The notes: generated from the letters alone by a model not told the origin. DNA of 64,000 bases from GCF_988243305.1 NZ_OZ547136.1; one strand, 5' to 3'. Positions 18,963 through 25,588 are shown, counted from the first letter of the stretch. A program made the numbers and translations.

Positions 18963-19694
18963 ATGAGCGAAATGATTTACGGCATCCACGCAGTGCAGGC
19001 CCTGCTGGAGCGCGCCCCTGAACGTTTTCAGGAAGTCTTTATTTTAAAAGGTCGTGAAGATAAACGTCTGTTACCGCTGATTCACGCCCTTGAGTCTCAG
19101 GGCGTGGTTATCCAGTTGGCAAACCGCCAATATCTCGACGAGAAAAGCGACGGTGCCGTGCATCAGGGCATTATCGCCCGCGTGAAGCCAGGACGTCAGT
19201 ATCAGGAAAACGATCTGCCGGATCTGATCGCTTCGCTCGATCAACCGTTCCTGCTGATCCTCGACGGCGTAACCGATCCGCACAACCTCGGCGCGTGCCT
19301 GCGTAGCGCGGACGCTGCTGGCGTTCACGCGGTGATTGTGCCGAAAGATCGCTCCGCACAGCTCAACGCTACGGCGAAAAAAGTAGCCTGCGGCGCGGCA
19401 GAAAGCGTTCCGCTGATTCGGGTGACTAACCTTGCGCGCACCATGCGTATGTTGCAGGAAGAGAATATCTGGATCGTCGGTACGGCAGGCGAGGCGGATC
19501 ATACACTCTATCAGAGCAAAATGACCGGACGCCTGGCGCTGGTGATGGGTGCGGAAGGTGAAGGTATGCGTCGCCTGACTCGTGAACATTGCGATGAGTT
19601 GATCAGCATCCCGATGGCTGGAAGCGTTTCTTCCCTGAACGTTTCGGTTGCGACCGGAATTTGCTTATTTGAAGCGGTGCGCCAGCGCAGCTAA
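18963..19694 (+). CDS. rlmB: 23S rRNA (guanosine2251-2'-O)-methyltransferase RlmB
   Basis: 243 aa; SpoU/TrmH methyltransferase motifs. Confidence 0.95.
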
Positions 19695-19711
19695 TTTCTC
19701 AGAATTATGAA

Positions 19712-19742
19712 AAGCCATCCAGATTTGGATGGTTTTTTTTTG
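19712..19742 (+). terminator. Rho-independent terminator after rlmB
   Basis: Stem CCATCC/GGATGG with 5-6 nt loop followed by a run of 9 T. Confidence 0.75.
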
Positions 19743-19820
19743 TCTATAGCTGGTAAGATAATTACGTATTGCAAATATTCATTTTATTAATATTTAAACT
19801 TAATCTATATGGAATAATAT

Positions 19821-20222
19821 ATGACATGGAATCCGTTGGCGCTAGCGACGGCGCTGCAAACTGTACCTGAACAAAATATTGATGTAACAAATAGCGAGAA
19901 CGCATTAATTATTAAAATGAATGATTATGGCGATTTGCAAATCAATATTCTTTTTACTTCCCGCCAAATGATTATCGAAACCTTTATTTGTCCGGTGAGT
20001 AGTATCAGCAATCCAGATGAATTTAATACCTTCTTATTAAGAAATCAGAAGATGATGCCGTTGTCATCGGTAGGGATCTCCAGCGTACAACAGGAAGAGT
20101 ATTACATTGTTTTCGGGGCGTTATCGCTTAAATCTTCTCTTGAAGATATCCTGCTTGAGATAACCTCGCTGGTAGATAACGCATTGGATCTGGCTGAAAT
20201 TACAGAAGAATATTCACACTAA
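19821..20222 (+). CDS. yjfI: DUF2170 protein YjfI
   Basis: 133 aa; AT-rich upstream region; first gene of the yjfIJKLMC cluster. Confidence 0.85.
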   Translation: MTWNPLALATALQTVPEQNIDVTNSENALIIKMNDYGDLQINILFTSRQMIIETFICPVSSISNPDEFNTFLLRNQKMMPLSSVGISSVQQEEYYIVFGALSLKSSLEDILLEITSLVDNALDLAEITEEYSH

Positions 20223-20240
20223 TTACAAGGACGGGTATTT

Positions 20241-20939
20241 ATGGGAATTTTAAAAAGTTTATTTACGCTGGGGAAATCGTTTATCTCCCAGGCGGAAGAA
20301 TCCATTGAAGAAACCCAGGGCGTGCGCATGCTGGAACAGCATATTCGTGACGCTAAAGCTGAACTCGATAAAGCCGGAAAATCTCGCGTTGATCTGCTGG
20401 CGCGGGTGAAATTAAGTCACGATAAGCTGAAAGATTTACGTGAGCGCAAAGCCAGTCTGGAAGCCCGTGCGCTGGAAGCGTTAAGCAAGAACGTTAATCC
20501 GTCGTTGATTAACGAAGTTGCTGAAGAAATCGCGCGCCTTGAGAATCTCATTACCGCTGAAGAGCAAGTGTTGTCGAATCTGGAAGTCTCCCGTGATGGC
20601 GTGGAAAAAGCAGTTACAGCGACAGCGCAGCGTATCGCTCAGTTTGAGCAGCAAATGGAAGTCGTTAAAGCCACTGAAGCCATGCAGCGTGCACAACAGG
20701 CTGTAACAACCTCTACCGTTGGCGCATCTTCCAGCGTTTCGACAGCGGCAGAATCCTTAAAACGCCTGCAAACGCGTCAGGCCGAACGTCAGGCTCGCCT
20801 GGATGCTGCCGCACAGTTGGAGAAAGTCGCAGACGGTCGCGACCTTGACGAAAAGCTGGCGGAAGCCGGAATTGGCGGTAGCAATAAAAGTAGCGCCCAG
20901 GATGTATTAGCAAGACTGCAACGCCAACAGGGCGAGTAA
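20241..20939 (+). CDS. yjfJ: PspA/IM30-family protein YjfJ
   Basis: 232 aa, predicted long coiled coil, PspA/Vipp1-like. Confidence 0.88.
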   Translation: MGILKSLFTLGKSFISQAEESIEETQGVRMLEQHIRDAKAELDKAGKSRVDLLARVKLSHDKLKDLRERKASLEARALEALSKNVNPSLINEVAEEIARLENLITAEEQVLSNLEVSRDGVEKAVTATAQRIAQFEQQMEVVKATEAMQRAQQAVTTSTVGASSSVSTAAESLKRLQTRQAERQARLDAAAQLEKVADGRDLDEKLAEAGIGGSNKSSAQDVLARLQRQQGE

Positions 20940-20946
20940 TTTTTTT

Positions 20947-20979
20947 GCCAGCCTCGCTAAAAGGCTGGCAACTATTTTA
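20947..20979 (+). terminator. Hairpin plus T-tract after yjfJ (possible attenuator or terminator)
   Basis: Stem GCCAGCCT/AGGCTGGC followed by AACTATTTT. Confidence 0.45.
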
Positions 20980-20989
20980 AGGATAAAAT

Positions 20990-21649
20990 ATGTCTGGTTT
21001 TTTCCAGCGTCTGTTTGGCAAGGATAATAAGCCTGCTATCGCTCGCGGTCCGCTGGGACTTCATCTCAATAGTGGCTTTACGCTCGACACGTTAGCGTTT
21101 CGTTTGCTGGAAGATGAATTGCTGATTGCGCTGCCGGGTGAGGAATTTACGGTAGCCGCTGTCAGCCACATCGATCTGGGCGGCGGTAGTCAGATTTTCC
21201 GCTACTACACTTCAGGCGATGAATTTCTGCAAATCAATACCACCGGCGGCGAAGATATTGATGACATTGATGATATCAAGCTCTTTGTCTATGAAGAGAG
21301 CTACGGTATCAGTAAAGAGAGTCACTGGCGCGAGGCGATCAACGCCAAAGTGATGGGGGCAATGATCTTAAACTGGCAGGAAAAACGCTGGCAGCGATTT
21401 TTTAACAGCGAAGAACCGGGAAATATCGAACCCGTCTACATGCTGGAAAAAGTAGAAAATCAAAACCATGCCAAATGGGAGGTCCATAATTTTACCATGG
21501 GCTACCAACGCCAAGTAACCGAAGATACTTACGAATATTTGCTGTTAAATGGTGAGGAATCTTTTAACGATCTCGGCGAGCCAGAGTGGTTATTTTCGCG
21601 CGCGTTGGGTGTCGATATCCCGCTGACATCACTTCATATTATTGGTTAA
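20990..21649 (+). CDS. yjfK: DUF2491 protein YjfK
   Basis: 219 aa; conserved order after yjfJ. Confidence 0.85.
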   Translation: MSGFFQRLFGKDNKPAIARGPLGLHLNSGFTLDTLAFRLLEDELLIALPGEEFTVAAVSHIDLGGGSQIFRYYTSGDEFLQINTTGGEDIDDIDDIKLFVYEESYGISKESHWREAINAKVMGAMILNWQEKRWQRFFNSEEPGNIEPVYMLEKVENQNHAKWEVHNFTMGYQRQVTEDTYEYLLLNGEESFNDLGEPEWLFSRALGVDIPLTSLHIIG

Positions 21650-21666
21650 TTACAAGGACGTTTACA

Positions 21667-22065
21667 ATGCATATACTGGATTCACTTCTTGCCTTTAGCG
21701 CCTATTTTTTTATTGGCGTGGCTATGGTGATTATTTTTCTTTTTATCTATTCTAAAATTACACCGCACAACGAATGGCAGTTAATCAAAAACAATAATAC
21801 CGCGGCTTCACTGGCGTTCAGTGGTACATTGTTAGGTTACGTTATCCCATTATCCAGTGCGGCAATCAATGCGGTGAGTATTCCAGACTATTTCGCCTGG
21901 GGCGGGATTGCACTGGTGATTCAGTTACTCGTTTTTGCTGGTGTCAGACTTTATATGCCCGCATTAAGCGAAAAAATTATTAATCACAATACCGCAGCAG
22001 GAATGTTTATGGGAACCGCCGCGCTGGCTGGCGGTATTTTTAACGCAGCTTGTATGACATGGTAA
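21667..22065 (+). CDS. yjfL: DUF350 inner membrane protein YjfL
   Basis: 132-aa form from ATG 21667 (MHILDSLLAF...); multiple TM helices. Confidence 0.85.
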   Translation: MHILDSLLAFSAYFFIGVAMVIIFLFIYSKITPHNEWQLIKNNNTAASLAFSGTLLGYVIPLSSAAINAVSIPDYFAWGGIALVIQLLVFAGVRLYMPALSEKIINHNTAAGMFMGTAALAGGIFNAACMTW

Positions 22066-22074
22066 TGGACGATC

Positions 22075-22713
22075 ATGGCCAGAAAACGCAAATCAAGAAA
22101 TAACAGTAAAATTGGTCACGGAGCGATCAGTCGCATTGGAAGACCGCATAATCCTTTTGAGCCGCGCCGCAATCGCTACGCACAAAAATACTTAACGTTG
22201 GTGCTAATGGGCGGTGCCGTTTTTTTAATAGTCAAAGGATGGAGTGAAAGTAGCGATGTCGATAACGACGGCGACGGAACGTTTTACTCGACAGTGCAGG
22301 ATTGTATTGATGACGGTAATAATGCCGACATTTGCGCGCGTGGCTGGAATAACGCCAAAGCGGCGTTTTATGCCGATGTTCCGAAGAATATGACTCAGCA
22401 GAACTGTCAGTCTAAGTATGAAAATTGTTACTACGACAACGTTGAACAGAGTTGGATCCCGGTAATATCTGGATTTTTGTTAAGCCGGGTTATTCGTAAA
22501 GATCGCGATGAGCAGTTTGTTTATAACAGCGGCGGATCCTCATTTGCTTCCCGCCCCGTCTGGCGCAACACTTCCGGTGATTACTCCTGGCGCTCCGGTT
22601 CTGGCAAAAAAGAGTCTTACTCTTCAGGCGGCTTTACCACCAAAAAAGCGTCAACCGTTTCGCGCGGCGGCTATGGTCGTTCTTCCAGCGCCCGTGGGCA
22701 TTGGGGAGGCTAA
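22075..22713 (+). CDS. yjfM: DUF1190 protein YjfM
   Basis: 212 aa; basic N-terminus, TM segment, Ser/Gly-rich C-terminus. Confidence 0.85.
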   Translation: MARKRKSRNNSKIGHGAISRIGRPHNPFEPRRNRYAQKYLTLVLMGGAVFLIVKGWSESSDVDNDGDGTFYSTVQDCIDDGNNADICARGWNNAKAAFYADVPKNMTQQNCQSKYENCYYDNVEQSWIPVISGFLLSRVIRKDRDEQFVYNSGGSSFASRPVWRNTSGDYSWRSGSGKKESYSSGGFTTKKASTVSRGGYGRSSSARGHWGG

Positions 22714-22715
22714 TC

Positions 22716-23879
22716 ATGCTGAGACACAACGTTCCTGTGCGACGGGATCTGGACCAGATCGCCGCTAACAACGGTTTCGACTTTCATATCATCGACAATG
22801 AAATCTATTGGGATGAGAGTCGGGCTTACCGTTTTACTCTGCGCCAGATTGAAGAGCAGATCGAAAAACCGACTGCGGAACTGCATCAGATGTGCCTTGA
22901 GGTGGTGGATCGCGCGGTTAAAGACGAAGAGATCCTGACGCAACTGGCGATCCCGCCGTTGTACTGGGATGTGATCGCCGAAAGCTGGCGCGCACGCGAT
23001 CCTTCGCTGTATGGCCGGATGGATTTTGCCTGGTGTGGCAATGCGCCGGTGAAGCTGCTGGAGTACAACGCCGATACGCCGACCTCGTTGTATGAGTCGG
23101 CTTATTTCCAGTGGTTGTGGCTGGAGGATGCCCGGCGCAGCGGCATTATTCCGCGTGATGCCGATCAGTACAATGCCATTCAGGAACGCCTGATGTCGCG
23201 CTTTAGTGAGCTTTACAGTCGGGAACCGTTTTATTTTTGCTGCTGTCAGGACACCGATGAAGACAGGACTACCGTGCTGTACTTGCAGGACTGCGCCCAG
23301 CAGGCAGGGCAGGAGTCGCGGTTTATCTACATTGAAGATCTCGGTTTGGGCGTCGGCGGCGTACTGACCGATCTTGATGATAATGTCATCCAGCGTGCAT
23401 TTAAGCTGTATCCGCTGGAGTGGATGATGCGTGACGATAACGGTCCGCTGCTGCGCAAGCGTCGCGAGCAATGGGTGGAGCCGTTATGGAAAAGTATCTT
23501 GAGTAATAAAGGGCTAATGCCGCTGCTTTGGCGCTTCTTCCCTGGTCATCCTAACCTTCTTGCATCCTGGTTTGAAGGTGAAAAACCGCAGATTGCCGCT
23601 GGCGAAAGCTATGTGCGTAAACCGATCTACTCGCGCGAAGGCGGCAACGTCACCATTTTCGACGGTCAGAATAACGTCGTTGACCACGCTGATGGTGATT
23701 ACGCCGATGAACCGATGATCTACCAGGCGTTTCAACCTCTGCCGCGATTTGGCGATAGCTACACACTCATCGGTAGCTGGATTGTCGATGATGAAGCGTG
23801 CGGAATGGGGATCCGTGAAGATAACACGCTGATCACCAAAGACACCTCTCGTTTCGTTCCGCATTACATTGCTGGCTAA
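22716..23879 (+). CDS. yjfC: Glutathionylspermidine-synthase-like ATP-grasp protein YjfC
   Basis: 387-aa form from ATG 22716 (MLRHNVPVRRDLDQIA...); 2-nt gap after yjfM. Confidence 0.88.
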   Translation: MLRHNVPVRRDLDQIAANNGFDFHIIDNEIYWDESRAYRFTLRQIEEQIEKPTAELHQMCLEVVDRAVKDEEILTQLAIPPLYWDVIAESWRARDPSLYGRMDFAWCGNAPVKLLEYNADTPTSLYESAYFQWLWLEDARRSGIIPRDADQYNAIQERLMSRFSELYSREPFYFCCCQDTDEDRTTVLYLQDCAQQAGQESRFIYIEDLGLGVGGVLTDLDDNVIQRAFKLYPLEWMMRDDNGPLLRKRREQWVEPLWKSILSNKGLMPLLWRFFPGHPNLLASWFEGEKPQIAAGESYVRKPIYSREGGNVTIFDGQNNVVDHADGDYADEPMIYQAFQPLPRFGDSYTLIGSWIVDDEACGMGIREDNTLITKDTSRFVPHYIAG

Positions 23880-23962
23880 GAATGTTTTAGCAATCTCTTT
23901 CTGTCAGGAATCCATGGCAGTGACCATACTAAAGGTGACTGCCATTGATGGAGGGAGACACA

Positions 23963-25588
23963 GTGCACTGGCAAACTCACACCGTTTTTAATCAACCTAT
24001 ACCATTAAATAACAGCAACTTATACCTGTCTGATGGCGCGCTCTGCGAAGCGGTAACGCGTGAAGGTGCTGGCTGGGATAGCGATTTTCTAGCCAGTATT
24101 GGTCAGCAGTTAGGAACGGCTGAATCCCTTGAACTGGGGCGGCTGGCGAATGTGAATCCGCCTGAATTATTGCGCTACGATGCGCAAGGACGCCGTCTGG
24201 ACGATGTGCGTTTTCACCCCGCCTGGCACCTGCTGATGCAGGCGCTATGTACCAATCGGGTGCACAATCTTGCCTGGGAAGAAGACGCTCGCTCCGGCGC
24301 ATTTGTGGCGCGCGCGGCGCGTTTTATGTTACATGCGCAGGTTGAGGCGGGGTCGTTATGTCCGATAACCATGACCTTTGCCGCCACGCCATTGTTGTTA
24401 CAGATGTTACCCACGCCGTTTCAGGACTGGACCACGCCGCTGCTGAGCGATCGCTACGATTCTCACTTATTGCCAGGTGGGCAAAAACGCGGTTTGTTGA
24501 TTGGCATGGGAATGACGGAAAAGCAGGGCGGTTCCGATGTCATGAGCAACACCACCCGCGCAGAGCGCCTGGAAGATGGCTCTTATCGGCTGGTGGGGCA
24601 TAAATGGTTTTTCTCGGTGCCGCAAAGCGATGCGCATCTGGTGCTGGCGCAGACTACGGGCGGTTTGTCCTGCTTTTTTGTGCCGCGCTTTTTGCCTGAC
24701 GGGCAACGCAACGCGATTCGCCTCGAGCGGCTGAAAGATAAGCTGGGTAATCGCTCTAACGCCAGCTGCGAAGTGGAGTTTCAGGATGCCATTGGCTGGT
24801 TGTTGGGGCAGGAAGGGGAAGGAATTCGTCTGATCCTGAAAATGGGTGGGATGACGCGTTTTGATTGCGCCCTGGGTAGCCATGCCATGATGCGCCGTGC
24901 GTTCTCGCTGGCGATTTATCATGCACATCAACGCCATGTTTTTGGTAATCCATTGATCCAACAGCCCCTTATGCGTCATGTCTTAAGTCGCATGGCACTT
25001 CAGCTTGAAGGGCAAACGGCGTTGCTGTTTCGTCTTGCGCGAGCGTGGGACCGGCGTGCCGATGCCAAAGAAGCTCTGTGGGCGCGTTTATTTACACCTG
25101 CGGCAAAATTTGTGATCTGCAAAAGAGGTATGCCGTTTGTGGCCGAAGCGATGGAGGTGCTGGGCGGCATTGGTTATTGCGAGGAGAGCGAGCTGCCGCG
25201 GCTTTACCGGGAGATGCCGGTAAACAGTATTTGGGAAGGTTCCGGCAATATTATGTGCCTGGATGTGCTGCGCGTTCTCAATAAACAAGCGGGCGTATAC
25301 GACTTATTGTCGGAAGCATTTGTGGAAGTGAAAGGGCAGGATCGCTATTTTGATCGCGCGGTTCGTCGTTTACAGCAGCAGCTGCGTAAGCCAGCTGAAG
25401 AACTGGGGCGAGAGATTACTCATCAGCTATTCCTGCTGGGCTGCGGTGCGCAAATGTTGAAATATGCCTCTCCGCCAATGGCGCAGGCGTGGTGTCAGGT
25501 GATGTTAGATACGCGCGGCGGCGTACGGTTGTCAGAGCAGATCCAGAATGATTTATTGCTGCGGGCGACGGGGGGAGTGTGTGTGTAA
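23963..25588 (+). CDS. aidB: Adaptive-response acyl-CoA dehydrogenase-like protein AidB
   Basis: 541-aa form with GTG start 23963 (VHWQTHTVFNQ...); acyl-CoA dehydrogenase fold. Confidence 0.9.
   Translation: MHWQTHTVFNQPIPLNNSNLYLSDGALCEAVTREGAGWDSDFLASIGQQLGTAESLELGRLANVNPPELLRYDAQGRRLDDVRFHPAWHLLMQALCTNRVHNLAWEEDARSGAFVARAARFMLHAQVEAGSLCPITMTFAATPLLLQMLPTPFQDWTTPLLSDRYDSHLLPGGQKRGLLIGMGMTEKQGGSDVMSNTTRAERLEDGSYRLVGHKWFFSVPQSDAHLVLAQTTGGLSCFFVPRFLPDGQRNAIRLERLKDKLGNRSNASCEVEFQDAIGWLLGQEGEGIRLILKMGGMTRFDCALGSHAMMRRAFSLAIYHAHQRHVFGNPLIQQPLMRHVLSRMALQLEGQTALLFRLARAWDRRADAKEALWARLFTPAAKFVICKRGMPFVAEAMEVLGGIGYCEESELPRLYREMPVNSIWEGSGNIMCLDVLRVLNKQAGVYDLLSEAFVEVKGQDRYFDRAVRRLQQQLRKPAEELGREITHQLFLLGCGAQMLKYASPPMAQAWCQVMLDTRGGVRLSEQIQNDLLLRATGGVCV

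Follow-up and report, generated by a model that had tools for sequence, protein, structure and literature searches.

The yjfIJKLMC locus and its products

The window analysed here, a stretch of 64,000 nucleotides (nt) from GCF_988243305.1 (NZ_OZ547136.1), carries at positions 19821-23879 the chromosomal yjfI-yjfJ-yjfK-yjfL-yjfM-yjfC locus of Escherichia coli. As an earlier note on this DNA had stated, the locus consists of six co-directional genes separated by short gaps: six open reading frames (ORFs) on the plus strand tile the region exactly in the ORF list of the window, with intergenic distances of 18, 50, 17, 9 and 2 nt from yjfI to yjfC. The genes are yjfI (19821-20222, 133 amino acids (aa), DUF2170), yjfJ (20241-20939, 232 aa, PspA_IM30), yjfK (20990-21649, 219 aa, DUF2491), yjfL (21667-22065, 132 aa counted from the ATG used in K-12, DUF350), yjfM (22075-22713, 212 aa, DUF1190) and yjfC (22716-23879, 387 aa from the K-12 ATG, the mechanical ORF starting at a TTG at 22701; GSP_synth, the glutathionylspermidine (Gsp) synthase family). 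All six Pfam matches lie far over their gathering scores and agree with the family assignments of the earlier note. A mechanical ORF call also places a 253-aa frame antisense to yjfC (22710-23471, minus strand).

The yjf stretch is matched by megablast in 5425 of 5426 complete E. coli genomes, with at least 80% coverage in 5326 of them, and the matched genomes annotate it as yjfI, J, K, L, M and C. The K-12 RefSeq record has the identical gene order, between rlmB and aidB, and yjfI and yjfJ show 100% nucleotide identity to their K-12 counterparts. No Rfam family was found across positions 19400-24200 at E<=1.

A role as a component of an anti-phage defence island would be in line with the 'phage shock' name of the PspA family and with weak matches of the YjfJ coiled coil to the JetC and LmuB models (E 5e-4 and 2e-3). 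Against this, the PADLOC defence models yield no real match for any of the six proteins, five of which have none at all, and the core gene set lies at a fixed position in 5425 of the 5426 genomes. With the PADLOC scan of the six proteins returning only coiled-coil noise, a defence system was rejected, and we regard such a role as extremely improbable.

YjfI belongs to the DUF2170 family (PF09938, E 1.5e-44) and matches over residues 3-128 the Protein Data Bank (PDB) entry 8Q8O, 'DUF2170 family protein', which corresponds to Pseudomonas aeruginosa BacA (E 1.1e-16). Its score against the NCBIfam BacA equivalog NF050185 (93.7 bits, 1e-26, aligning with the C-terminal 115 profile positions only) is well under the cut-off of 300, and YjfI is therefore a relative of BacA and not an orthologue by the NCBI criterion. 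DUF2170 has been assigned to the CesT/Tir-like chaperones (PMC11237479, PMC10948618) and, by analogy with BacA, YjfI would be a small chaperone or regulator of this type acting as a partner of YjfJ.

YjfJ presents a full-length match to the profile of the PspA/IM30 (bacterial ESCRT-III) family, with its coiled-coil helices alpha1-alpha5 (PF04012, E 5.3e-58; the score of 196.7 bits compares with a cut-off of 33.9, and the alignment covers all 220 profile positions), and is annotated in K-12 as 'PspA family protein YjfJ'. It has no match among PDB sequences at E<=0.01, and a 2026 review states that little is known on YjfJ even now. YjfK matches DUF2491 (1.4e-70) and is a soluble protein of all-beta type whose N-terminus forms a short basic/aromatic helix; it is devoid of signal peptide and transmembrane (TM) segment and has no close solved fold, and no relationship to DUF4178 or any other Pfam family was detected at E<=1. 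The N-terminus of YjfJ (20241-20290, MGILKSLFTLGKSFI) is likewise short, basic/aromatic and amphipathic-looking, and that of YjfK (20990-21020) reads MSGFFQRLFGK, the family consensus being MF-K-[W/L]-F-K-K. By inspection, both segments might serve as helices that target the proteins to membranes, in the manner of helix alpha-0 of PspA/Vipp1. YjfL matches DUF350 (1.3e-33), contains four hydrophobic segments and is annotated in K-12 as an inner membrane protein.

YjfM was compared with its family through a DUF1190 profile search across 1.84 billion representatives, which yielded 1111 relatives, and motifs were counted in 128 full-length representatives clustered at 50% identity. This envelope protein matches PF06693 (DUF1190, E 4.4e-18), whose model extends to the penultimate residue, and is composed of a long basic n-region, a signal/lipobox segment, a four-Cys domain, a hydrophobic motif and a basic disordered tail that includes RGG[Y/F]G and ends in WGG-COOH. 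Four further Cys besides that of the lipobox, the hydrophobic motif P-x-M-x-G-[F/Y]-M and T-x-S-R-G-G-F-G are near-invariant in the family, and the usual C-terminal end is S-[W/F/M]-G-G, with GG in 110/128 and GS in 9/128 representatives. YjfM C77, C87, C111, C118, R197-G-G-Y-G and G211-G212 all align with near-invariant columns, so that it shares the profile, the four Cys, the RGGFG motif and the GG terminus of the family. The tail, of about 80 aa, comes after the conserved hydrophobic segment and is variable, of low complexity and strongly basic, with a median net charge of +8. YgiB, encoded next to tolC, is only 26% identical to YjfM, yet both retain TV[S/T]RGG[Y/F]G...GG-COOH.

The lipobox Cys is present in 120 of the 128 representatives and in K-12, whereas the YjfM of the window has a Trp at position 56 (codon 22240-22242), the only Trp found there (FFVLKGC|SDSS in K-12, FLIVKGWSESS in the window). 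yjfM is by far the gene of the cluster that has diverged most from K-12, with 14 aa changes (nonsynonymous divergence dN 0.030, synonymous divergence dS 0.164), and dN reaches 0.161 (dS 0.199) in the signal/lipobox segment, residues 39-60. The 191-nt segment with the Trp allele occurs at no less than 99% identity in 672/5426 E. coli genomes and is therefore a common second haplotype, not a sequencing error.

YjfC spans nearly all of the GSP_synth profile (PF03738, E 2.4e-149, positions 3-371 of 371) and matches PDB 7UK6/7UK7, 'Putative acid--amine ligase YjfC', with E 4.8e-273, which makes it a GSP_synth-like ATP-grasp enzyme. Its paralogue YgiC, for which crystal structures are likewise available (7UK8/7UKA), shares 51% identity with it, and both are named 'peptide--spermidine ligase' in K-12 RefSeq. 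By contrast, YjfC scores only 163 bits, against a cut-off of 882, with the NCBIfam model of bifunctional GspSA (PRK10507), aligning with its C-terminal part only, and does not belong to that family. PMC12568646 and PMC11762307 cite Pederick et al. (2023, Biochemistry 62:899) for ATP-dependent peptide-spermidine ligase activity in vitro, whereas YjfC and YgiC have no Gsp synthetase activity according to Sui (2012), as cited in another paper.

This operon family has been described previously by Ravi et al. (mSystems 2024; PMC11237479) as composed of a CesT/Tir-like (DUF2170)-PspA dyad, a Gsp-synthetase-related ATP-grasp ligase, a K+ channel, DUF350, DUF1190 and DUF2491, and they proposed a PspA-based system coupled to polyamine chemistry, with related operon variants encoding AdoMet decarboxylase and polyamine oxidase. 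The combination of a membrane-stress scaffold with an amide ligase, which the earlier note had put forward, matches this published comparative genomics. The locus, its composition and the PspA-polyamine coupling are therefore already in the literature, and what is presented here is no new object, but an open question together with testable details. The description of the cluster in the earlier note as functionally uncharacterised holds at the operon level, but is too strong for its parts, since ligase structures, in vitro activity and heat and bac phenotypes have been published; a survey of literature and databases reveals an established biochemical role for one enzyme in vitro, and none for the operon. 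In this sense the locus is a piece of the "unknome" of E. coli, as a conserved core operon with a role still to be assigned.

Gene order, channel loss and transcription

Gene neighbourhoods were analysed by scanning one genome per species with a single profile built from YjfC and YgiC, which resulted in 80 loci, all of them in the Gammaproteobacteria, with ORFs annotated by phmmer. The DUF1190 gene lies directly upstream of the ligase gene in 79 of these; the exception is a Photobacterium ganghwense locus (L081, 7833-11164), in which a gene for a 676-aa lipoprotein takes the place of DUF1190. DUF350 precedes DUF1190 in all 61 loci not adjacent to tolC, while in 18 loci tolC stands in place of DUF350 (tolC-M-C). 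The full order I-J-(extra gene)-K-L-M-C is found in 38/80 loci, plus six cut by contig ends, spanning Enterobacterales, Alteromonadales, Vibrionales and Oceanospirillales-like genomes with ligase identities of only 50-55%, and standalone L-M-C loci number at least 11 among those with the full 10 kb of upstream sequence. From the protein side, distant DUF1190 representatives also have a GSP_synth gene directly downstream in 3/3 cases, with gaps of 0-2 nt. The constant core is thus DUF350 or TolC, DUF1190 and the ligase, and the existence of standalone L-M-C and tolC-M-C loci identifies the PspA part, I-J-(K+ channel)-K, as a separable add-on.

In most relatives the extra gene, located between yjfJ and yjfK (e.g. 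L005:3070-4140 and L017:7184-8239), encodes a K+ channel of about 350 aa, which has a selectivity filter of the TVGYGD type and matches Pfam Ion_trans_2 and, weakly, TrkA_N/RCK. This gene is kept in only 19/5426 E. coli genomes. In its position, both the window and K-12 present the 50-nt yjfJ-yjfK spacer (20940-20989), the 3' part of which can still be aligned to the terminal part of the channel gene. The E. coli operon of six genes derives from one of seven. The spacer is the scar of the lost channel gene and contains, on the plus strand, a stable terminator-like hairpin with a weak U-tract (20945-20971; fold of -18.5 kcal/mol, z -4.05), which is consistent with the published transcription unit nsrR-rnr-rlmB-yjfIJ (PMC3946193) and is probably the end or an attenuator of the annotated yjfIJ unit.

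Upstream of yjfI, the spacer after rlmB is the same as in K-12. It harbours a predicted intrinsic terminator of rlmB (19709-19741, plus strand), identified in the scan for terminator-like sites as a hairpin (RNA fold of -18.1 kcal/mol, z -4.8) with a T9 run (19733-19741) at its end, and a published constitutive sigma-70 promoter of yjfI (PMC3946193), read in the window as TTAATA-17-TGGAAT (19787-19815, plus strand). Sigma-54, Psp-like regulation of E. coli yjfI was considered and rejected: the consensus TGGCAC-N5-TTGCW, allowing up to two mismatches, has no match in the rlmB-yjfI spacer (19695-19820).

In heat-evolved E. coli, a (T)9->8 mutation at K-12 position 4410053 (rlmB +47 / yjfI -80), termed a promoter mutation in the supplement of PMC12492005, switches on yjfIJKL (PMC12492005). 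The mutated site maps onto the T9 run at 19733-19741, which forms the U-tract in the terminator predicted for rlmB. As the annotation places yjfIJ in one transcription unit with the genes before it (nsrR-rnr-rlmB-yjfIJ), the mutation may let transcription from rnr-rlmB read through, or may change the spacing, instead of altering a promoter in the classical sense.

Under one alternative, yjfIJ(KL) and yjfMC are independent units that merely happen to be adjacent in E. coli, and the published nsrR-rnr-rlmB-yjfIJ unit, the hairpin after yjfJ, an iModulon restricted to yjfIJKL and the occurrence of L-M-C and tolC-M-C loci devoid of I, J and K can all be read in this way. Maintenance of the full I-J-(channel)-K-L-M-C order in 38/80 loci over several orders, at ligase identities of 50-55%, argues against mere adjacency, and so does yjfL, which in E. 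coli is a member of the IJKL iModulon but elsewhere is part of the L-M-C core and therefore bridges both halves. We consider such independence unlikely.

A proposed two-module view of the operon

Several published phenotypes can be related to the locus. Rychel et al. (GBE 2025) recognised yjfIJKL as an iModulon consisting of this one operon, with strong induction in heat-evolved strains of E. coli, and cells in which these genes are activated from a plasmid grow more than 1.21-fold faster at 42 C (PMC11472167). The growth defect of a ΔtolC strain becomes more severe when YgiBC and YjfMC are also missing, and ygiB is under Cpx control. In P. aeruginosa, the homologous bac operon affects biofilm, rhamnolipid and virulence, and the crystal structure of its DUF2170 protein, BacA, resembles that of a chaperone (PMC10948618); deletion of bacA increases the other, downstream Bac proteins 6-13-fold. 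In practical terms, these observations offer hints on heat tolerance, on the fitness of efflux mutants and on biofilm formation and virulence in Pseudomonas.

On this basis it seems reasonable to postulate, with about even confidence, that yjfIJKLMC is a two-module system protecting the cell envelope, and chiefly the inner membrane. The first module would comprise YjfI-YjfJ and YjfK, ancestrally together with a ligand-gated K+ channel. YjfJ, a protein of the PspA/ESCRT-III type, would bind and stabilise the stressed cytoplasmic membrane, and YjfI, as a CesT-like dimer, may restrain or regulate it; the families and folds are those observed for both proteins, and the role follows what has been described for BacA. 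In the second module, composed of YjfL, YjfM and YjfC, the cytoplasmic ligase would join spermidine to a peptide carboxylate through an ATP-driven amide bond formation, an activity reported in vitro, whereas YjfL and YjfM might link the resulting cationic spermidine conjugate to the envelope, either as exporter and receptor or by being the acceptor itself. Together, both modules would raise membrane robustness under heat, efflux loss or ion leakage. The domain content, the ligase structures, the DUF1190-ligase synteny, the channel gene between J and K, the heat and ΔtolC phenotypes, the control exerted by BacA and the PspA-polyamine coupling proposed in PMC11237479 all favour this two-module view, which as a whole we hold to be about as probable as its negation.

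A number of points weigh against it. To our knowledge, no experiment links the first module with the second. The E. coli iModulon comprises yjfIJKL and leaves out yjfMC (Rychel et al., GBE 2025), the hairpin at 20945-20971 parts yjfIJ from the remaining genes, and among the 80 loci the L-M-C and M-C modules are also found in the absence of any PspA gene. YjfJ has been reported not to form large PspA-type rings (PMC5333519), and PMC11762307 stresses that the physiological substrate of the ligase is unknown. Furthermore, the loss of the channel in E. coli and that of the YjfM lipobox Cys in this strain suggest a relaxed need for parts of the system.

Within the second module, the main question is what YjfC conjugates. 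One possibility, to which we give only tentative credence, is that the partner it joins to spermidine is a small peptide or metabolite in solution, the product being a functional analogue of Gsp, and that DUF350, DUF1190 and TolC export, sense or bind the conjugate; co-regulation of the PspA module would then follow from the effect of polyamine status on the stability of the membrane. GspSA and trypanothione synthetase, the closest characterised relatives, use a tripeptide, and the in vitro activity is described on peptides, as cited in PMC12568646 and PMC11762307. The operon variants with genes for AdoMet decarboxylase and polyamine oxidase (PMC11237479) point in the same direction, as do the position of the DUF1190-ligase pair next to a membrane protein, DUF350, or to an outer-membrane exit duct, TolC, and the more severe metabolic defect of ΔtolC cells once YgiBC and YjfMC are lost. 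However, a small-molecule product leaves the invariant GG C-terminus of DUF1190 unexplained. Moreover, we know of no such spermidine-conjugate metabolite in E. coli. Glutathione itself, according to Sui (2012) as reported in a citing paper, is not used by YjfC or YgiC.

The GG terminus is what suggests a protein acceptor instead, namely that YjfC and YgiC attach spermidine, as an amide, to the carboxylate of the invariant C-terminal Gly-Gly of the DUF1190 protein encoded beside them (YjfM or YgiB), giving rise to a cationic, polyamine-tipped envelope protein. This reading, which we deem doubtful, has a variant that is at least as doubtful, in which the modification takes place prior to export, or on a tail re-entering the cytoplasm, and acts jointly with the PspA-like module to adjust the charge or stability of the envelope. 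Glutathionylspermidine synthetase uses the glycine carboxylate of glutathione. By analogy, a DUF1190 acceptor would mirror that reaction, and the ligase is reported to act on peptides (cited in PMC12568646 and PMC11762307). The DUF1190-ligase pair is near-obligate and apparently translationally coupled (79/80 loci and 3/3 distant representatives), and [W/F/M]-G-G (GG 110/128, GS 9/128) caps a tail that is otherwise variable, of low complexity and strongly basic (median net charge +8) after the conserved hydrophobic segment. The Pfam model, moreover, reaches the last residue but one, and YjfM and YgiB, at 26% identity, share the GG-COOH tail.

The topology, on the other hand, is difficult to reconcile with a protein acceptor, for the lipobox Cys (120/128) and the four further Cys are typical of an exported, disulfide-bonded lipoprotein, whereas the ligase carries no export signal, and the hydrophobic motif in the middle of the protein is too short and polar for a clear second TM helix (median sum of 8.6 and none below 3 in a crude Hessa-scale scan of 19 residues). 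AlphaFold2 modelling of a YjfC-(GS)12-YjfM-tail fusion with a 20-row paired alignment gave no docking signal, with a predicted local distance difference test (pLDDT) score of about 90 for the ligase and of 27-31 for linker and tail. Conserved C-termini are, besides, not unique to DUF1190: that of DUF350 proteins reads L/F-N-A-A-C-M-[T/S]-[Y/W]-COOH in 61/61 loci (L003-L082; 22042-22065 in the window), and YjfK homologues mostly end in I-N-G or I-I-G, with a final G in 36/44. If true, C-terminal spermidinylation of DUF1190 would be a previously undescribed protein modification on an envelope protein.

Whichever the acceptor, the locus links bacterial ESCRT-III/PspA membrane repair with polyamine conjugation, and the natural acceptor and the sensed signal, once found, would close a long-standing annotation gap. 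The details added here to the published picture are the constant core, the separable PspA add-on, the channel loss with its hairpin scar, the GG end of DUF1190 and the loss of the lipobox Cys.

Relation to known systems

The two-module view of yjfIJKLMC can be set against several established systems. Like yjf, the E. coli Psp system (pspABCDE/pspF) and Bacillus subtilis LiaIH encode a PspA/IM30 effector together with small membrane proteins and have a link to membrane stress. Yet the yjf locus has neither PspB/C nor LiaI partners, no PspF and no sigma-54 site upstream of yjfI; in their place it has a CesT-like DUF2170 partner and a coupled ATP-grasp ligase, and YjfJ differs in its reported lack of large rings (PMC5333519). 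With no sigma-54 site, rlmB and aidB as neighbours and no psp genes present, the locus falls outside the classical Psp regulon. The bacA-F operon of P. aeruginosa (PA3732-...) is headed by the same DUF2170-PspA dyad and also consists of six genes, with BacA as a negative controller, but has been reported to be sigma-54 dependent, unlike yjf.

On the side of the ligase, GspSA and trypanothione synthetase belong to the same ATP-grasp GSP_synth fold and family as YjfC and form an amide between spermidine and a peptide carboxylate. YjfC differs from GspSA in lacking the N-terminal (CHAP) amidase domain (387 against 619 aa, with a match to GspSA residues ~253-613 only) and in making no Gsp. ATP-dependent carboxylate-amine ligases that act on the conserved C-terminus of specific proteins are exemplified by RimK with ribosomal protein S6 and by PafA with Pup, and both Pup and ubiquitin carry C-terminal GG-type motifs. 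The likeness of RimK and PafA to YjfC is one of analogy only.

A counterpart of the second module is found in E. coli itself. The tolC-ygiB-ygiC locus contains the same DUF1190-ligase dyad as yjfMC, with YgiB keeping RGGFG...GG-COOH, and its function has been reported to be redundant with that of YjfMC in a ΔtolC background; it differs from yjf in that the upstream partner is TolC, and not DUF350 and the PspA module, and in that ygiB is Cpx-regulated.

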